From a virus (taxonomy: Duplodnaviria; Heunggongvirae; Uroviricota; Caudoviricetes), in the IMG/VR virus record IMGVR_UViG_2565956711_000006, positions 1-31,175 of that record: a DNA stretch of 31,175 nt; one strand, written 5' to 3'. Of this stretch, positions 23,093-31,175 are shown piece after piece. The translations under genes and the position numbers were made by a program. The notes under the pieces are model-generated. The model searched no databases. It saw only the letters and a list, made by a program, of their open reading frames with translations, and was not told where the DNA came from. Each line of letters opens with the position of its first letter. The first letter of the stretch is position 1.

Positions 23093-23809
23093 TCACTGGC
23101 CTGCGTTAACCATGGCGGCGCGGCAGGCGTTCCATCCAATTTTTTGCTGAACGGTGCCGAATTGGCACAGCATTGCAGCGACCGCCATGAATGAGCCGAA
23201 CTCGTAATAGTTTGCCGGATCATTTCCCTGGTAATGACCCCCAACATGTTCAGCCCACTGCCCAAGTGTCCAGTTGAAGCGTTCGCTATGTTGCTCGTCC
23301 GGCAGCGATACCGGCGCTGGCTCAGTTTTCCAGCCGTGATACCACATAAATGCACAGTAAGCGGCAACATCCCGGGGGTCTCCCTTAGCTATATGCTGTT
23401 GAAAGTCTGCCTGGCATTGGCTTGGCCAACCATCTTGTTTCCAGTCCGCGTCATAGCCATATTTTAATTGAGCCTTGTACAACTTCTCAGCCAGGGCGGA
23501 GCTGAAGTCGGTCACCAGTTTCAGCGTATCAGGATGAAGCTCTGCCGGAACTACCGGCGCTGGCGTGGCGGAGTATAGCGGGGCGATATTTCTTTCCAGA
23601 TCGGTAATTACGCTCCATACAGGAATAGATTCAACACCCTGCTTAGCCATATCGCGGTAACTGTCTGCATAGGCCAGCACGGGATTTCGCCCTGACTCCT
23701 CCGCTTCGAGCGATGCCAGCGCGATACGCGCCAGCTCCTCCACCTCATCAAAGTTATATCCGCCGCCTGCTGCAATTTTTGCTGCGCGTTCTCTGGTAAT
23801 TTTGCTCAT
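23093..23809 (-). CDS. hypothetical protein, 238 aa, downstream of replication gene A
   Basis: Start at ATG 23809 (MSKITRERAAK...) with SD AGGAG; no family recognised; last gene before cos. Confidence 0.6.
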   Translation of the reverse strand: MSKITRERAAKIAAGGGYNFDEVEELARIALASLEAEESGRNPVLAYADSYRDMAKQGVESIPVWSVITDLERNIAPLYSATPAPVVPAELHPDTLKLVTDFSSALAEKLYKAQLKYGYDADWKQDGWPSQCQADFQQHIAKGDPRDVAAYCAFMWYHGWKTEPAPVSLPDEQHSERFNWTLGQWAEHVGGHYQGNDPANYYEFGSFMAVAAMLCQFGTVQQKIGWNACRAAMVNAGQ

Positions 23810-23861: not shown

Positions 23862-26219
23862 TTATGACGCACCGTTAAAGGCTTTTTTCATTCGGTTAAT
23901 AAGACTATTTGTCTGTTGCTTCGCCGCCATCACCTGCGACGGCAGCTTATCCAGCCCCGACGCGGCGCGGTTGCGCGATACCAGCCGCCCATCCTGCACT
24001 GTCATAACAAGATCGCCGCACGCCACTGACGCACCGGCCATCATCGATCTGACCATTCCGGCGCTGGCATCAATCCCACGCAGCGCCAGCAGTTCACTGA
24101 TCTGCTGCTCTTTCACGGATATCCCGGCCCCGTCTTCCCGTTCCGGTGGCCGTTTTTTCCGCTTACTTCGCACATCGTCACTTAGCCTCTGTGCCAGTTC
24201 CCGCTTTTCCTGCCGTGAAAGAGCATCAAAATTCACCGTCTCGCCCACTTCGTGATCGGCATGTTCAAGACCGTCAGCACCTGTCGCGGGATCCCGCGTA
24301 CAGTTATTGACAGAACTCCGAGGGGCGGCGTTGCCGCCTGAAAAACCAACGTCAACGGCCACACCGTCAGCGCTCTGGCGCTTCGGCACGATTTTGTATT
24401 GAGTGGTGCGGGTGAAGATCAAAGAGTCATTGCCCGTAATCGGGCAGTAAATACCAGTGATTCGCTGGACGTTATCGCCGTAGGCGTTGCCGTTTTCAGT
24501 GGTTTCATAATTCAGACGGATGCGCAGCTTATCGCGCTCAACCAACGGGCCACCCTGGGCTAATACGTAGTTATCCCATTCGCCACCGTTAGCGGCCTGC
24601 CGGGCGGTTTCCAGTTCAGGGTGTAACACCAGTTCGCGATCGCCCAAGCGGCGAAGTTCGCGATATACCGTGACCGGCGCACCGCCGATCTGCTGAAACT
24701 GACGAATAGCCCAGCGCGATGCCCACGCGCTAACGCGGAGTGACATTTCTTTCAGGTCTTCCCCGGTTTCGTCGTCCTTCTCACCATCCAGCGCGAAGCC
24801 GTCGATATTCTTCGAAATGTATTTCGCTATGTAGCCAGTTGCGCTGCCGTGGGCATCGTCGATCGGCACGACCTGAAAGCGGTTTTCCTGCGCTCCCGGT
24901 TCGTTGCCGTCTTCTTTCAGGGCATATTTACGGAAGATTTCGCGCGCCTGCTCGACGCATTCCGGGCGCATAAAAAGAAGCAAATGCCAGTGTGGCGTTG
25001 CATCGTGGTGCGGTTCGACCACGCGGAAACCAAAGACGCGGATCCCTTTTCTCTTCCATGCGGCGCGGGTTCTCGCCCAGACTTTGCAAAGATATTGCTG
25101 TGTCTCACGCGGCGACGCGCCACAGTATTTGTTATTACGGCGCCCGTTATGCTGCATAGCGTGATAGCGGGAAGGCGCTGTCAGCGTGTAGAAGTCACCG
25201 GCCAGCCCTTCCAGCTTCGCCAGATCTTCAAATCCGCGCATTCTCGTCATGAGTTCGCGGCGACGGTTGGCCGGATTGGCAACACTGCCGGCGACTTTAT
25301 CGATCAGCGAAATGCGCTCGCCCGTGTCCTGGTCTTCCAGTTCCATAGCCTTGAGGTATTCACGGTTAGCTTTTTTCTGGGCCAGCCATTCCGTAAGGCA
25401 CGGGGCGCTACTGTATGGGGAGGATTTTTTCTGGACGTATCCCGCTGCGATCATCAAATGCTCACGCCACCGGGCATGGATACGGCGCAGGCGGTTTAAC
25501 CACCACTGCGGTGACTCAAGACGGAGAACTGCGCGTAACGCGTCCTCCGCTTCAAGTTCTTCATTGCAATAAGCTGTCCAACCGGGGATCGGCGTTTTCA
25601 GATGCACTGCCAGCGATGCAATACGGCCATAGCCAGAAAGCGCCGCGAACTCAGGATCGCCGGTGCGCACCAACTGGTGATCGGACTCGCGTATAAACTC
25701 GCTCGTAAAGATATCGGCAAGCGTATAAGCCAGTCTTTTTAACTCTTTTTTCCCTGCCCAGAGCATACGGAAAAGCTGATCGCGAATTGGCAGCAGAATG
25801 CCGGGCATCACAGTATCAGGCTGGTAAACACTGTTCACGCTATCAATACGCGTTAATACGTGGCGCTCAAAGGTGTTAAGCAGCCAGTGATCTGCCGCTT
25901 TGCGGTCTTTCACATCCAGCGCATCAAGCTTCGCTGCAAAGTGGCGGCGGACATATTGCGGAAGAGAAGCCAGACGGCGACGCAGCAGCTTACTGCGTTC
26001 CGGCTTTTCGTCCTCCGCTACCAGTTCACTGAACGCAATATGCTTACGCGTGCCGTCCGGCATGAGATAGTCGAAACCATCCAGCCCCGGCGCTACATCA
26101 ACGCCAATCGGCTGGTATGATTTGTTCCCGCCATAAGCGTAAGGGATAGCATTGTCAGTGCTACCCGGATACGGTGGAGGTGGAGAAGGGGCGCGACGGC
26201 CACGGGTTGCCGTGGTCAT
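23862..26219 (-). CDS. A: replication initiation protein gpA (rolling-circle nicking endonuclease)
   Basis: 785 aa; contains ATPHWHLLLF (HUH-type) and GYIAKYISKN (catalytic Tyr) motifs typical of P2 A family. Confidence 0.92.
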   Translation of the reverse strand: MTTATRGRRAPSPPPPYPGSTDNAIPYAYGGNKSYQPIGVDVAPGLDGFDYLMPDGTRKHIAFSELVAEDEKPERSKLLRRRLASLPQYVRRHFAAKLDALDVKDRKAADHWLLNTFERHVLTRIDSVNSVYQPDTVMPGILLPIRDQLFRMLWAGKKELKRLAYTLADIFTSEFIRESDHQLVRTGDPEFAALSGYGRIASLAVHLKTPIPGWTAYCNEELEAEDALRAVLRLESPQWWLNRLRRIHARWREHLMIAAGYVQKKSSPYSSAPCLTEWLAQKKANREYLKAMELEDQDTGERISLIDKVAGSVANPANRRRELMTRMRGFEDLAKLEGLAGDFYTLTAPSRYHAMQHNGRRNNKYCGASPRETQQYLCKVWARTRAAWKRKGIRVFGFRVVEPHHDATPHWHLLLFMRPECVEQAREIFRKYALKEDGNEPGAQENRFQVVPIDDAHGSATGYIAKYISKNIDGFALDGEKDDETGEDLKEMSLRVSAWASRWAIRQFQQIGGAPVTVYRELRRLGDRELVLHPELETARQAANGGEWDNYVLAQGGPLVERDKLRIRLNYETTENGNAYGDNVQRITGIYCPITGNDSLIFTRTTQYKIVPKRQSADGVAVDVGFSGGNAAPRSSVNNCTRDPATGADGLEHADHEVGETVNFDALSRQEKRELAQRLSDDVRSKRKKRPPEREDGAGISVKEQQISELLALRGIDASAGMVRSMMAGASVACGDLVMTVQDGRLVSRNRAASGLDKLPSQVMAAKQQTNSLINRMKKAFNGAS

Positions 26220-26395
26220 ATTTGAACTACATCCCCTACTTTAACGGCTTTGGCTTCCTCTTCTGATTTCTTCAGAATTGTGGTTATTGACTCCCTTCCA
26301 TAAGCTGTTACTTTCGCCTCAACCAACCAATACGGCACAATCTCGCCACGACTCACGCTTATGATTTCAACGATCCAGGCGTCTACAAGATTCAT
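26216..26395 (-). CDS. hypothetical small protein (59 aa) coupled between dam and A
   Basis: Not in the ORF track (below cut-off); ATG overlaps dam stop (TAATG) and its TGA overlaps the A ATG (ATGA); MNLVDAWIVEIISVSRGEIVPYWLVEAKV... Confidence 0.45.
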   Translation of the reverse strand: MNLVDAWIVEIISVSRGEIVPYWLVEAKVTAYGRESITTILKKSEEEAKAVKVGDVVQI

Positions 26396-27366
26396 TAAAA
26401 CGCCTCCATATCGTCAAACGTGCCTGCCGCAACCATCGCGTTGTAAGTCGCATCACCCATCACGGCGCCACAATCAGGGCAACCGCCGCCGTAACGCCCG
26501 CAGCAGTCGCAGACAGGCAGCACGCCGATCACTTCTTTGGCCTTCTGGCGGTTGTCTTTGTCAGTGCTGACGGAACGTTGCACGCTGATTTCGTGCATCT
26601 TGAAAGGCTGATAAATCGCGCGGGTGGCTTCGGTGTCGCTGTTGGAAATGACAACCTTCACGCCATGCTTACGGTTAACTTCCAGCAGTGCCTGGACTAA
26701 CTGGCGGTGGTTGTCTTCCGTGAATGGTTCGGTGTGGTATTGGGTAAAATCGGCTGTTTTGCTTTCAGGCAGGTAAGGCGGATCGCAGTAAACGAGAACA
26801 TCGCCACCCGTGACGACCTGTAGAGAACGCTGGAACGGCGCGCAAAGAAATATTGCCTTTGTATCGTTGGCCTTTTCGGCAAACAGGCGGATTTCATTTT
26901 CAGGAAAGTAGACGCTCTTATACTTGCCAAACGGCACGTTAAAGCCGGTCTTACGGCTGTAACGGCATAAGCCGTTATAACCGTGGCGGTTCAGATACAG
27001 GAATTGAGCAGCACGCATGATGCGCGCCATTTCGACGCCATAACGCAACCCACAGCTTTTTACCGTACATACCTGCTTATTGAACGCGGCGCGGACTTCG
27101 TTGTACCCCTGCGGGCTGTTCTTGCTGTTGAACAGTTCGCGGGCCGCATCGATCACTAAGTCCGGGTAACGGGTGACTTTCCGATAAAGGTTAATAAGAT
27201 CCGGGTTGATATCAGCCAGCACATAGCGGCGGTACTCAGTCGCCAGAAATACCGATGCGCCGCCTACGAACGGTTCGATCAGGCAGTCGGCTTTAGGAAG
27301 GTGCGGCAGCAGGTCAGGAAGGACACGGGTTTTACCCCCTGCCCATTTGATGAACGGGCGGATCAT
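26395..27366 (-). CDS. dam: DNA adenine methyltransferase (Dam family) with Cys-rich C-terminal extension
   Basis: MIRPFIKWAGGK N-terminus, FVGGASV AdoMet motif, DPPY catalytic motif; extra C-terminal about 45 aa with CDCCGRYGGGCPDC. Confidence 0.85.
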   Translation of the reverse strand: MIRPFIKWAGGKTRVLPDLLPHLPKADCLIEPFVGGASVFLATEYRRYVLADINPDLINLYRKVTRYPDLVIDAARELFNSKNSPQGYNEVRAAFNKQVCTVKSCGLRYGVEMARIMRAAQFLYLNRHGYNGLCRYSRKTGFNVPFGKYKSVYFPENEIRLFAEKANDTKAIFLCAPFQRSLQVVTGGDVLVYCDPPYLPESKTADFTQYHTEPFTEDNHRQLVQALLEVNRKHGVKVVISNSDTEATRAIYQPFKMHEISVQRSVSTDKDNRQKAKEVIGVLPVCDCCGRYGGGCPDCGAVMGDATYNAMVAAGTFDDMEAF

Positions 27367-27367
27367 T

Positions 27368-27580
27368 TTACAGGACTCCGTAAGGGGAAGATGGAACAGC
27401 CGGACGCTGCAACGCCGTGGTAAGGCGCTGGCGCATGTCGTCGATAAAGCAGGAAACAGAGGGATCGTCAGAAGAAAGGGTTAACTCACCATCGCGGCGG
27501 GTTTTAATCGTCAGCCCTTCACGCTCAACAGCAGGTAAGAGAACGTGCAGGATGAAGTTATATTGATCGCGTTTAGTCAT
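27368..27580 (-). CDS. hypothetical protein (70 aa)
   Basis: ORF with SD GAGG 10 nt upstream; stop abuts the dam ATG; no family recognised. Confidence 0.5.
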   Translation of the reverse strand: MTKRDQYNFILHVLLPAVEREGLTIKTRRDGELTLSSDDPSVSCFIDDMRQRLTTALQRPAVPSSPYGVL

Positions 27581-27622
27581 GATTCGAAGCCTCAGAAATT
27601 GCCGGGTTTCCCCGGCAATCTG

Positions 27623-27805
27623 TTACTGGTGATCCGCTGATTGGTTAGCTGACTTGAGGGCAGGCCAGACAAGGAGAAGAAGAGCGCCAACGAAGAAGGC
27701 GTCGCCAATCACCGAAAGCAGGTAGCTGGTGAAATCCACTGCTACGACCATGAAGGCCAACAGCAGGGCCAGCGCCGGACGTAGTGAATCCAGCACGCGC
27801 AGCAT
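27623..27805 (-). CDS. small hydrophobic protein with two predicted TM helices (60 aa)
   Basis: MLRVLDSLRPALALLLAFMVVAVDFTSYLLSVIGDAFFVGALLLLVWPAL; ATG overlaps the TerB-like stop (TGATG). Confidence 0.55.
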   Translation of the reverse strand: MLRVLDSLRPALALLLAFMVVAVDFTSYLLSVIGDAFFVGALLLLVWPALKSANQSADHQ

Positions 27806-28239
27806 CAGAGATAATCCTCAACACGCAGCCCCAGACGGCGCCCGACCTCTTCCAGCACCTTCTGTTCTTCTGGTTCGATCTGGCCGTCCGCTTCGGCGAT
27901 AGTCAGCATGTTGACGAAGACTTCTTCGGCTTCTTTCGGATCGTTTTTGATGTCGTCGATTTCGCGCAAAATGTTCATGCGGCCAACGCGGAAGCCAGCT
28001 TCAAGCTGTTCCGTATAGCGGTTGATGGTGGATGTAATTTCATTGCCGAAATGCGCAAGGCGCGGGTTAGAGCGGATAAGCTGATCCAGCTTGCTGGTTT
28101 CTTCTTTTTCGATCTCGCCATCGGCGGCAGATACCAAAAGACAACCGCCGACAATAGCTTCCATAAGATCGCGATTTTCCACTTTCTTAAGTTCAACTTT
28201 TGCCGCTGCTACTTTTTTTCCAAACAGTTTATTAAACAT
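27805..28239 (-). CDS. TerB-like domain protein
   Basis: Start at ATG 28239 (MFNKLFGKK..); two repeats of the TerB-type helical motif (..GGCLLVSAADGEIEKEE.. and ..TIAEADGQIEPEEQKVL..) resembling remembered TerB; the plus-strand antisense ORF 27784..28257 is low-complexity. Confidence 0.65.
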   Translation of the reverse strand: MFNKLFGKKVAAAKVELKKVENRDLMEAIVGGCLLVSAADGEIEKEETSKLDQLIRSNPRLAHFGNEITSTINRYTEQLEAGFRVGRMNILREIDDIKNDPKEAEEVFVNMLTIAEADGQIEPEEQKVLEEVGRRLGLRVEDYL

Positions 28240-28274
28240 GCTATTTATCCTTTTTAGGATGAGTGAAAGCGCCA

Positions 28275-28290
28275 TCACTTAATTAAGTGA
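28275..28290. promoter_or_regulatory. 16-bp perfect palindrome, candidate operator
   Basis: tcacttaattaagtga is its own reverse complement; sits in the AT-rich gap 36-51 bp upstream of the TerB-like start. Confidence 0.4.
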
Positions 28291-28333
28291 CGACAGTGAA
28301 GACTGTTTTTTAATTACTATTTAACTGACGTTG

Positions 28334-28564
28334 TTAGCCGATTAAATCTCTCAAAGAATTAACAAGGTTAAAAAGCAATCCTTTGTTTATCTTCTTCGTA
28401 TAAACAAAGGGCTTACTCATTCCCTTAATAAATTGAACCTTGCTAGGCTCAGGTTTAAAGAATTGCCCGTCTGGTGTTTCCAGCCAGCCGCGTGAGTTTT
28501 TGAAGTGTGTAAACTGGCACCCGTGCTTAAGCAGGCTTGCCAGTGATGGGCCTTCATCGTGCAT
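28334..28564 (-). CDS. hypothetical protein (76 aa)
   Basis: ATG 28564 (MHDEGPSLASLLKHG...) with SD AGGGGG 6 nt upstream. Confidence 0.5.
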   Translation of the reverse strand: MHDEGPSLASLLKHGCQFTHFKNSRGWLETPDGQFFKPEPSKVQFIKGMSKPFVYTKKINKGLLFNLVNSLRDLIG

Positions 28565-28805
28565 TACTGCCCCCTTGCTTATACATCTGATCAACCGTGC
28601 GCATGGCTTCCGCTAAAGCAAAGTCACGCCCGTAATAATCGCCATTGCTGGAAATACGATAAGAGTGCTTAAACGTAAATGGATTACGCGGGCATTTCTG
28701 AATAGTGAAGCCACGATATAAATATGAATGACGACTTAACTGTATTAATTGCACAGCCACAAAAGCCCCCTCACATTCCCAATTTAAGCAATTCACCATC
28801 AACAT
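28554..28805 (-). CDS. hypothetical protein (83 aa), weakly supported
   Basis: Fills the gap between the flanking small genes but has no SD before either candidate ATG (28805/28799). Confidence 0.3.
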   Translation of the reverse strand: MLMVNCLNWECEGAFVAVQLIQLSRHSYLYRGFTIQKCPRNPFTFKHSYRISSNGDYYGRDFALAEAMRTVDQMYKQGGSNAR

Positions 28806-28974
28806 GGCGGGCCACGTCTTTGGTTATTTTCTTAATCAGCTTTTTATCCCTGATCATAAACTCGCCGCTATTGGTGCGAATCATGAAGCCCGTTTGCATA
28901 TCTTTTAAATGGGTGTCCAGAATGTCGTTGCATTCACGCACCCGGTTTTCGTGGTTGGCTGTTTTCTGGCTCAT
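28771..28974 (-). CDS. hypothetical protein (67 aa) immediately downstream of cox
   Basis: ATG 28974 (MSQKTANHENRVRECNDILD...) with SD GAGG; occupies the position of P2 orf78. Confidence 0.5.
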   Translation of the reverse strand: MSQKTANHENRVRECNDILDTHLKDMQTGFMIRTNSGEFMIRDKKLIKKITKDVARHVDGELLKLGM

Positions 28975-28984
28975 CGCGATAACC

Positions 28985-29266
28985 TCAAAGACCGATCCAC
29001 AGCAACCAAGCGTCGCGCTGCTCTCTCGGACGGTTGTAGTAGGCGTCACGCATTGCGCGGTTGAACTCAGGAATATAGATCCAGTTCTCAGCACGGGCGC
29101 CCAGGCTGTCCGGGTTCTTCCACGGGATGATCGGCAACTTACCGTCTTCAATCATGCTCTTAACCGTGGCGGGCTTCTTACCGATTAACTCGGCAAATTT
29201 AGGGTATGGAACCGCGTCAACGGCATGACGCACTTCAATGAACCCCTCTAACTCTTTGTCTGTCAT
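28985..29266 (-). CDS. cox: Cox/Apl-type excisionase and early-promoter regulator
   Basis: Start at ATG 29266 (MTDKELEGF..) with SD GAGAGGTGA; ..VPYPKFAELIGKKPATVKSMIEDGKLPII..RDAWLLWIGL resembles remembered P2 Cox. Confidence 0.72.
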   Translation of the reverse strand: MTDKELEGFIEVRHAVDAVPYPKFAELIGKKPATVKSMIEDGKLPIIPWKNPDSLGARAENWIYIPEFNRAMRDAYYNRPREQRDAWLLWIGL

Positions 29267-29362
29267 AGCGTTATCACCTCTCATTGAAGATATGCCGGGA
29301 TTTTTAGCCACGCCCGGCGCGTGGTATTCTGGAGTTTCCACACAACCAGAAAGGAGATCTTT

Positions 29363-29599
29363 ATGTCTCAGAAAGAAGTACCTATCTACATTCCTGCTGA
29401 ACTTGAATACCTCGTTGCTAATGACCTGGCTTGCTTACGCTTCCACTACCACTTAGCTACACCGACAAAACTGCCCGAAGCAGGCGAGTTGTTTACTGGT
29501 TTAACCATTGAGCAAGCAAAAGACACCGTAACCTTCCTCCAGCAATACATTGCTAAAGCTGAACTTGCTTCTTCACTGGCCCCGAAACGGAGCCACTAG
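29363..29599 (+). CDS. hypothetical protein (78 aa) between cox and C, on the C/int strand
   Basis: ATG 29363 with strong SD AAGGAG 6 nt upstream; MSQKEVPIYIPAELEYLVANDLACLRFHYHL...; no family recognised. Confidence 0.55.
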   Translation: MSQKEVPIYIPAELEYLVANDLACLRFHYHLATPTKLPEAGELFTGLTIEQAKDTVTFLQQYIAKAELASSLAPKRSH

Positions 29600-29804: not shown

Positions 29805-30125
29805 ATGGTAGAGATCCCTACCCCGTCAAGCGGCGTGGGTGAAAAAATCAGAGCTATCAGGGATGCGGAGGGGTTAACAAGGCAGCAATTCTTTGAATTA
29901 ACTGGAATACCTGCTGGCACGCAGAAGTATTACGAGACAGGAAGAGTGGAGAGTATTGGTAGCGATATCTTGCTTAAGATCACTCAGCATTCACGTTTCG
30001 CAAAATACACGCTCTGGCTTATGACTGATAAGACCGCCCCTCAAGCTGGTCAAATCGCACCGGCCCTCGCACACATTGGGCCAGAGTCAACTGGATCAGA
30101 CCGCTCCGAGAAACAAACTGGTTAA
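29805..30125 (+). CDS. C: immunity repressor, P2 C family
   Basis: ATG 29805 with SD AAGGAGA; C-terminal ..FAKYTLWLMTDKTAPQAGQIAPALAHIGPE..KQTG matches remembered P2 C (..FTKYTLWFMTNQIAPESGQIAPALAHFG..KTG). Confidence 0.75.
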   Translation: MVEIPTPSSGVGEKIRAIRDAEGLTRQQFFELTGIPAGTQKYYETGRVESIGSDILLKITQHSRFAKYTLWLMTDKTAPQAGQIAPALAHIGPESTGSDRSEKQTG

Positions 30126-30194: not shown

Positions 30195-31175
30195 ATGTCG
30201 ATTAAGAAGCTCGAAGGTGGTCAATATGAAGTGGACGTATGGCCGCGCGGACGTAACGGAAAACGTATCCGCAGGCGATTTGAGAAGAAACAAGAGGCAG
30301 TTCTTTTTGAGCGTTATGTATTAGCCAACGCCGACAAAAAAGAATGGCTGGGCGCGAGCGTTGACCGCCGCACCTTAAGCGAGTTGTTAGATACCTGGTG
30401 GCTGCTATATGGACAGACTCAGGAAAATGGCGAGATTGAAAAGCGGCACCTGAATAAAACAATCAGGGCGCTTGGTGATCCAGCCGTTAACCGACTGAAC
30501 AAGCGAATGATTGCACAGCACCGAAGCCAACGGCTGGAAGACGGTATCAGCGCAGCAACGATCAACCGGGATATTTACCGTTTGTCCGGGATGTTCAGCA
30601 CGTTGATAAAGCTGGAAGAGTTCAGAAAGGAAAACCCCTGTAAGGGTCTGGAACCACTGAAAGAAGCGCCGCCAGCTATGACTTATCTCGCCAAATCAGA
30701 GATCAGCAAATTGCTGGATACTCTGACCGGCGACGATCGACGTGTAGCACTGCTATGCCTCAGCACTGGCGCACGCTGGGGTGAAGGGAGCACGCTGCGA
30801 GGTGAGCAGGTTAATCACGGGCGTGTGACGTTCCTTAAGACCAAAAATGGGAAAAAGCGCACGGTGCCGATATCGGAAGAACTGGAGAAAGAGATCAAGA
30901 CCAGCGACACCGGGCCACTGTTCAAAGTTGACTATGAAAACTTCTGCGAACGGCTCAGGCTGGTTAAGCCTGACTTACCACGCGGGCAGGCCACGCATGT
31001 GCTTAGACATACGTTCGCAAGCTGGTTCATGATGAACGGGGGGAACATTATTGCGTTACAGCAAATTCTGGGGCACGCCAGCATACAACAGACGATGGTT
31101 TACGCTCACCTTGCACCTGATTACCTGCAACACGCAGTAACGTTAAACCCTCTTGGCGGCGGGCTGATGGTGTGA
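30195..31175 (+). CDS. int: tyrosine integrase, P2 Int family
   Basis: 326 aa; MSIKKLEGGQYEVDVWPRGRNGKRIRRRF.. and C-terminal ..HVLRHTFASWFMMNGGNIIALQQILGHASIQQTMVYAHLAPDYL with the R..H-X-X-R..Y catalytic pattern; SD GGAGGG; stop is the last codon of the window. Confidence 0.92.
   Translation: MSIKKLEGGQYEVDVWPRGRNGKRIRRRFEKKQEAVLFERYVLANADKKEWLGASVDRRTLSELLDTWWLLYGQTQENGEIEKRHLNKTIRALGDPAVNRLNKRMIAQHRSQRLEDGISAATINRDIYRLSGMFSTLIKLEEFRKENPCKGLEPLKEAPPAMTYLAKSEISKLLDTLTGDDRRVALLCLSTGARWGEGSTLRGEQVNHGRVTFLKTKNGKKRTVPISEELEKEIKTSDTGPLFKVDYENFCERLRLVKPDLPRGQATHVLRHTFASWFMMNGGNIIALQQILGHASIQQTMVYAHLAPDYLQHAVTLNPLGGGLMV

Follow-up and report, generated by a model that had tools for sequence, protein, structure and literature searches.

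The closest described counterparts of the region analysed here are the early operons of phages 186 and P2 and that of the Salmonella phages SEN4/SEN5. Phage 186 depends on host dnaC; P2 is not known to. According to the 186 record, Dhr inhibits the replication of host DNA, and overexpression of fil blocks cell division. P2 B, a protein of 166 aa (phrog_235), is among the listed replicative-helicase loaders (PMC12661323, where Odegrip et al. 2000 is cited), and SEN4/5 is an isolated, active, plaque-forming temperate phage (PMC5261728). Here we analysed a stretch of 31,175 nucleotides of viral DNA (IMG/VR record IMGVR_UViG_2565956711_000006, positions 1–31175; hereafter the window), centring on the interval 28334–28974. 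We consider it likely that the window is a Senquatrovirus (SEN4/SEN5)-type P2-family prophage and that the interval comprises genes 2, 3 and 4 of its early lytic operon.

Organization of the early region

The window is a P2-family prophage terminating at the stop codon of int (30195–31175, + strand). Its early lytic operon lies on the minus strand, that is, leftward in window coordinates, and begins upstream of cox. The features from the immunity repressor to gene A are as follows.

29805–30125, + strand: P2 C-type immunity repressor, 106 aa; phrog_147, E = 4.7e-37; 321 bp in RefSeq; divergent from cox
28985–29266, − strand: cox, 93 aa; Pfam Phage_Cox, E = 5.8e-23; phrog_272; opens the early lytic operon
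28771–28974, − strand: ORF1, 67 aa; orphan early protein; phrog_29148
28554–28760, − strand: ORF2, predicted DUF4761 protein, 68 aa; start almost certainly at GTG 28760
28334–28564, − strand: ORF3, predicted Fil-family cell-division inhibitor homologue, 76 aa; Pfam Phage_186_Fil
28271–28294, − strand: 10-bp hairpin in the fil–TerB spacer; perfect 16-bp palindrome TCACTTAATTAAGTGA
27805–28239, − strand: TerB-family protein, 144 aa; Pfam TerB, E = 3e-14; phrog_632
27623–27805, − strand: DUF3927/TciB-like small membrane protein, 60 aa; Pfam DUF3927, E = 6e-8; phrog_1470
27598–27619, − strand: GC-rich terminator-like hairpin at the end of the TerB–DUF3927 cassette; −20.7 kcal/mol, z −4.0; followed by UUUCU
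27368–27580, − strand: Dhr-like ORF, 70 aa; likely homologue of 186 Dhr
26395–27366, − strand: Dam-type DNA adenine methyltransferase of the early operon, 323 aa; phrog_56, E = 8.6e-102
26216–26395, − strand: 59-aa ORF; phrog_8110, E = 2.7e-12; annotated in RefSeq; end overlaps the start of gene A
23862–26219, − strand: gpA-type rolling-circle replication endonuclease, 785 aa; 'replication endonuclease' in RefSeq

The conserved gene order is cox–(ORF1)–DUF4761–fil–(TerB–DUF3927)–dhr-like–dam–orf59–A; the related loci referred to throughout are 79 IMG/VR viral contigs encoding DUF4761. The nearest sequenced phages are Salmonella SEN4/SEN5 and Enterobacter phiT5282H, with ~94% nucleotide identity across 60% of the region. 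The window gpA shares 93% identity with the replication protein of SEN5 and 39% with A of L-413C, a close P2 relative. Among 5,426 complete Escherichia coli genomes, 43 matched the region, 13 of them with at least 80% coverage. The prophage of E. coli EC09, which adjoins cpxP, displayed zero nucleotide differences from the window in cox, ORF1, DUF4761, fil and the 70-aa gene; there, RefSeq annotates Cox (282 bp), a hypothetical protein (204 bp), DUF4761 (207 bp), a Fil family protein (231 bp), TerB (435 bp), DUF3927 and a hypothetical protein (213 bp). The small ORFs are annotated identically by RefSeq in E. coli prophages and in SEN4/SEN5. Public phage and E. coli genomes already contain this arrangement and these exact sequences, with annotation. 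An earlier note on this DNA had called the small genes after cox unrecognised; in fact, all three are annotated in RefSeq and two of them fall into Pfam families (Fil and DUF4761). Searches of NCBIfam and PADLOC returned no match for any small ORF.

The cox ATG is preceded by the Shine–Dalgarno (SD) sequence GAGAGG. A consensus scan for the early promoter yielded nothing above chance (two found against 3.5 expected; the only consensus match is at 29829–29800). Between cox and C, on the C/int strand, lies a 78-aa ORF (29363–29599, +) with a strong SD, AAAGGAG. It is a hypothetical protein in RefSeq, is present in 6 of the 79 related loci and has a weak match to BssS (E = 0.03) as its sole family match. 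This ORF widens the cox–C gap to ~540 bp, compared with ~115 bp in P2; the SEN5 gap contains three other ORFs. With a gap this wide, one may ask where the early and repressor promoters, which face each other, are positioned. Additionally, an inverted repeat, CCACGC-N5-GCGTGG, was found at 29308–29324, ~45 bp upstream of the cox start, and may serve as an operator or, in the early leader, fold into an RNA hairpin.

At the other end of the operon, the 59-aa ORF ends in a stop codon that overlaps the gene A start codon. P2 orf83 and 186 orf84 similarly overlap the start of A; according to the 186 record, translation through the end of orf84 is apparently required for translation of A. Just 3′ of gene A, a 238-aa ORF (23093–23809, −) occupies the accessory position of P2 orf91/tin/old. 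It matches only the function-less PHROGs phrog_16519 and phrog_4838, and nothing in PADLOC or NCBIfam.

Packing and coding potential of the small ORFs

The earlier note had described tightly packed ORFs of 67, about 83 and 76 aa following cox. The packing and the 67- and 76-aa products were found as described, and the ORF read as 83 aa almost certainly encodes 68 aa (see below). The cox stop codon is separated by 10 nt from the start of ORF1 and ORF1 by 10 nt from ORF2, and ORF2 overlaps ORF3 by 11 nt. The stop codons of cox and ORF1 sit within the SD of the following gene (TTTGAGG and GTGAGGGGG). The tight spacing, the stops inside the next SD and the 11-nt overlap indicate that the ORFs are packed for translational coupling, and they mark cox–ORF1–DUF4761–fil as a predicted translationally coupled polycistronic block of the early operon.

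Selection on these genes was estimated from 33–62 distinct alleles per gene drawn from the 79 contigs. The median pairwise dN/dS was 0.087 for ORF1 (33 alleles), 0.097 for DUF4761 and 0.14 for Fil, indicating purifying selection; in the controls, it was 0.02 for cox and 0.28 for the 70-aa gene. The idea that the small ORFs arose by chance or form part of an untranslated leader, to which their shortness and the missing functional annotation of two of them lend some colour, has to contend with these ratios (0.09–0.14 over dozens of alleles), with an SD site at every true start, with order and length kept across genera and with membership in Pfam and PHROG families. We regard it as so improbable as to be negligible, and it is refuted as far as sequence analysis reaches. 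The earlier note had left room for the ORFs being untranslated; the SD sites and dN/dS values speak for coding ORFs instead. Judged from their sequences, the three small ORFs are clearly real, conserved, coding genes.

ORF2 encodes a DUF4761 protein with a corrected start

The longest reading of ORF2 spans 28554–28805 and gives 83 aa from ATG 28805. This ATG has no SD and entails a 35-nt overlap with ORF1, whereas GTG 28760 is preceded at the proper distance by a strong SD, GAGGGGG. Homologues of ORF2 are 64–70 aa in length and start just ahead of the conserved LIQLS motif, and ORF2 is annotated as 207 bp by RefSeq and in SEN5. Eight related loci carry the 'MLMVNCLSWECEG' prefix in front of another gene, an insertion of ~80 aa. 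Because a different gene follows it there, this reading is no more than an open frame running across the end of ORF1. The 83-aa reading was rejected on account of the lacking SD at ATG 28805, the lengths of the homologues and the 'MLMVNCLSWECEG' prefix before another gene; the true start is almost certainly GTG 28760, predicting a protein of 68 aa.

The ORF2 product scores 41.8 bits against Pfam DUF4761 (PF15958), above the cut-off of 27, and thus falls within the family, the conserved motifs of which are YRGFTI and GRDFALAEA. The predicted model is a simple sheet plus helix (pLDDT ~73) with no informative fold match. In 74 of the 79 loci, fil is the gene next to DUF4761; the preceding gene is ORF1 in 46 loci and a Cox- or Apl-type gene in the others. 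In Buttiauxella, Serratia and Kosakonia prophages and in P88, more distant members of DUF4761 likewise follow the excisionase/Cox gene directly, in early operons of P2-like type. This retained position argues that DUF4761 belongs to the early core of several Peduoviridae lineages that lack B. A 138-aa 'DUF4761–Fil fusion' in JGI data (P0040) appears to be a frameshifted metagenome read and no genuine fusion. Literature searches (DUF4761; 186 fil/dhr; 186 dnaC) retrieved no functional study in open-access papers.

ORF1 is a clade-restricted accessory gene candidate

ORF1 matches the function-less phrog_29148 at E = 6e-50 and gave no Pfam or NCBIfam match. Its family is small, comprising 37 clusters that, all but one fragment, are at least 81% identical, and occurs in Salmonella, Escherichia, Enterobacter, Citrobacter, Lelliottia and similar genera. 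A HMMER profile search of 1.84 billion representatives recovered the family itself and one remote relative, P0185 (40% identical), whose locus keeps the cox–X–DUF4761–fil order; two long repetitive proteins in the same search were taken as chance matches. ORF1 is present in 46 of the 79 related loci and absent from 33. Its distribution points to an optional accessory insertion restricted to one clade.

The predicted ORF1 model consists of a helix, a β-hairpin and a helix (pLDDT 72.8) and found no informative fold match. P2 Orf78, which occupies the same position, was dismissed as a homologue (hhalign probability 1.3%). Sequence searches of the PDB with ORF1, DUF4761 and Fil returned nothing significant; Acb4, at E = 0.82, was disregarded. 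In eight related contigs (L044–L047; for example, L044 1975–2217), an extra gene of ~80 aa (MFNPLNKSYTAVINPF...) lies between ORF1 and DUF4761. We interpret the cox–fil stretch, on comparison of these loci, as a hot spot of gene gain and loss.

Fil, a Dhr-like gene and the cassette between them

ORF3 scores 77 bits against Phage_186_Fil (PF10893; gathering score 25, E = 8.7e-22, residues 6–63), placing it within the family, and matches phrog_816, 'cell division inhibitor', at E = 1.3e-20. Its identity to 186 Fil itself is modest, 34% over the N-terminal 44 residues only. Its RefSeq name is 'phage filamentation protein Fil family protein'. The gene, preceded by the SD AAGGGGG, shares 11 nt with the end of DUF4761 and has the location of a Fil-family gene, in the early lytic operon downstream of cox/apl and upstream of the dhr-like gene. 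Family membership identifies ORF3 as a homologue of the Fil-family cell-division inhibitors. Compared with SEN5, ORF1 and DUF4761 differ by 4 nt each and fil by 54 nt (75% amino acid identity, dS ~1; window 28334–28564 against L001 3868–4098). Near-identical ORF1 and DUF4761 beside a divergent fil form a mosaic junction, which places the recombination breakpoint at the DUF4761/fil overlap.

Farther down the operon, the 70-aa protein showed 33% identity to 186 Dhr over 63 aa (BLASTP, E = 1e-7), which is most of its length. The profile of its family aligned with Dhr over 62 columns with an hhalign probability of 89.5%, the profiles being shallow (Neff 1.8), and the two proteins are placed in separate PHROGs (phrog_21140 and phrog_6069). 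In SEN5 and most related loci, the gene lies directly 3′ of fil, as dhr does in 186, and it was found in 62 of the 79 related loci. The family is widespread and is labelled 'hypothetical' in all public sources. The 70-aa protein is likely a homologue of 186 Dhr, of the host-replication depressor type. The earlier note had suggested that such small early proteins are often host take-over factors; this fits ORF3 through its Fil family, as well as the Dhr-like gene, and nothing shows it for ORF1 or DUF4761.

In the window, the TerB and DUF3927 genes lie between fil and the dhr-like gene as what the locus comparison identifies as an inserted two-gene cassette. The pair was found in 24 of the 79 related loci and also in Buttiauxella prophages, and is absent from SEN5. 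It looks like a moron with potential for lysogenic conversion or exclusion. A PADLOC match of TerB to PDC-S48 (E = 0.003) was disregarded, as no aligned stretch exceeded the threshold. The predicted RNA fold of 28240–28340 (minus strand), across the fil–TerB spacer, has an energy of −19.4 kcal/mol (z −2.7). The hairpins flanking the cassette, at 28271–28294 and 27598–27619, could be terminators or protein-binding sites according to these models.

Absence of a P2 B-type gene

The earlier note had seen no P2 B-type gene between cox and A, and this observation held in every search. With P2 B as query, tblastn of the whole window reached E = 0.11 at best, at a position in the late region. No match to phrog_235 or the other PHROGs of B (phrog_602, phrog_14551 and phrog_5349) was seen among the early ORFs, and the ORF1 and DUF4761 profiles, compared with B by hhalign, gave a probability of ~0.1%, so that homology searches place no small ORF in the B family. 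There is no gene of ~166 aa between cox and A, where the proteins are 67, 68, 76, 144, 60, 70, 323 and 59 aa in length and are all assigned to families other than that of B. A broader tblastn of the window with P2 B, orf78, orf80–83 and orf91 and with 186 cII, dhr and orf80–84 left Cox and Fil as the only matches.

P2 B was found in none of the 79 related loci. Across 50,697 phage records, B was detectable in 76, compared with 383 for a gpA-type replicase; identity to P2 B is 95% or higher for 75 of the 76 B proteins and 85% for the remaining one, implying that all carriers are close P2 relatives. The same test, with P2 as positive control, did not find B in the 186 early region, the P88 early region or the complete SEN5 genome. 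SEN4/5 has the same operon without B, and a B-less relative is thus viable. Judging from these comparisons, a missing B is the normal condition of the SEN4/SEN5-type group and no anomaly. With B confined to close relatives of P2, its absence from other P2-family prophages should not be flagged.

Proposed working of the operon and alternative explanations

On induction or infection, the early transcript would yield Cox, which would flip the switch and excise the prophage. Fil from the same transcript would stop the host from dividing, the activity annotated for 186 Fil, and host DNA synthesis would be depressed by the Dhr-like protein. Next, gpA would nick the origin and initiate rolling-circle replication. 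Since no phage-encoded loader is present, DnaB would presumably be loaded by host DnaC; by analogy with 186, the simplest reading is that the window phage presumably also uses the host protein. ORF1 and DUF4761 lack any enzymatic or DNA-binding signature, and so are most likely small non-enzymatic proteins that act in the same early programme by binding another protein.

More specific roles for the two proteins can be envisaged. A small protein, most plausibly the conserved DUF4761, might take over from B, to which it would not be homologous, in loading or recruiting DnaB: phages of the window type have a gpA replicase without B, several Peduoviridae genera that lack B, among them SEN4/5, P88 and Klebsiella phages, have DUF4761 among their core early genes, and phages often exchange a helicase loader for an unrelated one (PMC11087808). 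However, DUF4761 shares no sequence or profile similarity with B, measures 68 aa against 166 aa, has a sheet-plus-helix model with no loader-like fold match, and is placed with cox and fil, far from A. Moreover, 186 has neither B nor DUF4761, showing that a phage-encoded loader is not required in the P2 family. We consider such a replacement highly improbable. A wider version would cast DUF4761 as a core effector of B-less P2-family phages, either standing in for the B loader or controlling Fil toxicity, with ORF1 as a second host-directed factor. The position of DUF4761 after cox/apl and its coupling to fil in 74 of the 79 loci mean that it could be such an effector, and we judge this very unlikely.

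Position also suggests that DUF4761 or ORF1 fills the 186 cII slot, between the excisionase/repressor gene and fil, as a lysis–lysogeny regulator; the 186 order apl–cII–fil–dhr parallels cox–ORF1–DUF4761–fil–...–dhr-like of the window, and no CII homologue was found in the window (tblastn of 186 CII) or in the 79 related loci. Speaking against this, the ORF1 and DUF4761 models contain no helix-turn-helix, neither protein matches a regulator family or phrog_101, and ORF1 is dispensable in many relatives. In addition, P2-type C/Cox switches function without CII. A regulator in this slot is, in our estimate, unlikely. Quite unlikely is the proposal that ORF1 is a very divergent paralogue of Dhr, which would give the operon two Dhr-like proteins. 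BLASTP aligned 186 Dhr with ORF1 over 23 residues covering the GF-I-T--G motif (E = 4e-4), hhalign gave the same register, and the Dhr-like family motif EGLTIKT, on the Dhr side a match of sequence only, aligns with GFMIRT, the hairpin of the ORF1 model. Nevertheless, hhalign reaches a probability of only 16.6% with Dhr and 0.9% with the profile of the 70-aa family, and BLASTP of ORF1 against the Dhr-like protein of the window finds nothing.

Under the reading we prefer, a SEN4/SEN5-type early operon, the region would be a standard 186-style early operon on a P2-style switch, and its significance lies mostly in annotation. The gains are threefold: the start of the DUF4761 gene is corrected, a widespread 70-aa 'hypothetical protein' family can be assigned, by likely homology, to Dhr, and the counts show that only close P2 relatives carry the P2 B helicase loader. 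DUF4761 and the 67-aa orphan are cheap candidates for screens of host-acting small phage proteins.

Comparison with known systems

The early (pR) operon of 186, apl–cII–fil–dhr–...–A, shares with the window fil and a dhr-like gene downstream of an excisionase/repressor gene, a gpA-type replicase, the lack of B and a hairpin/terminator after the small-gene block. In contrast to the CI/Apl switch of 186, that of the window is P2-type, with a C repressor (phrog_147) and Cox. The window has no cII but carries ORF1 and DUF4761 in that position, and its fil and dhr-like gene are separated by the TerB–DUF3927 cassette.

The early (Pe) operon of P2, cox–orf78–B–orf80–83–A, shares Cox (48% identity by tblastn), a C-type repressor and int divergent from cox, and the gpA replicase. 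Unlike P2, the window has no B and no homologue of orf78, orf80, orf81, orf82 or orf83; instead, it has ORF1, DUF4761, fil, the dhr-like gene and dam. Taken together, the gene content suggests a 186-like early region (fil, dhr-like, no B) joined to a P2-type C/Cox switch.

P88 gp04 is a DUF4761 protein of the same family in the same position directly after cox. It is annotated as 116 aa, with a long N-terminal extension, and is followed by unrelated genes and no fil, unlike its counterpart in the window. SEN4/SEN5 and phiT5282H (Peduoviridae, Senquatrovirus) have the same cox–67aa–DUF4761–fil–70aa–methylase–A operon, with ORF1 and DUF4761 97–99% identical. SEN5 differs from the window in having no TerB–DUF3927 cassette, a fil allele only 75% identical and other ORFs between cox and C.
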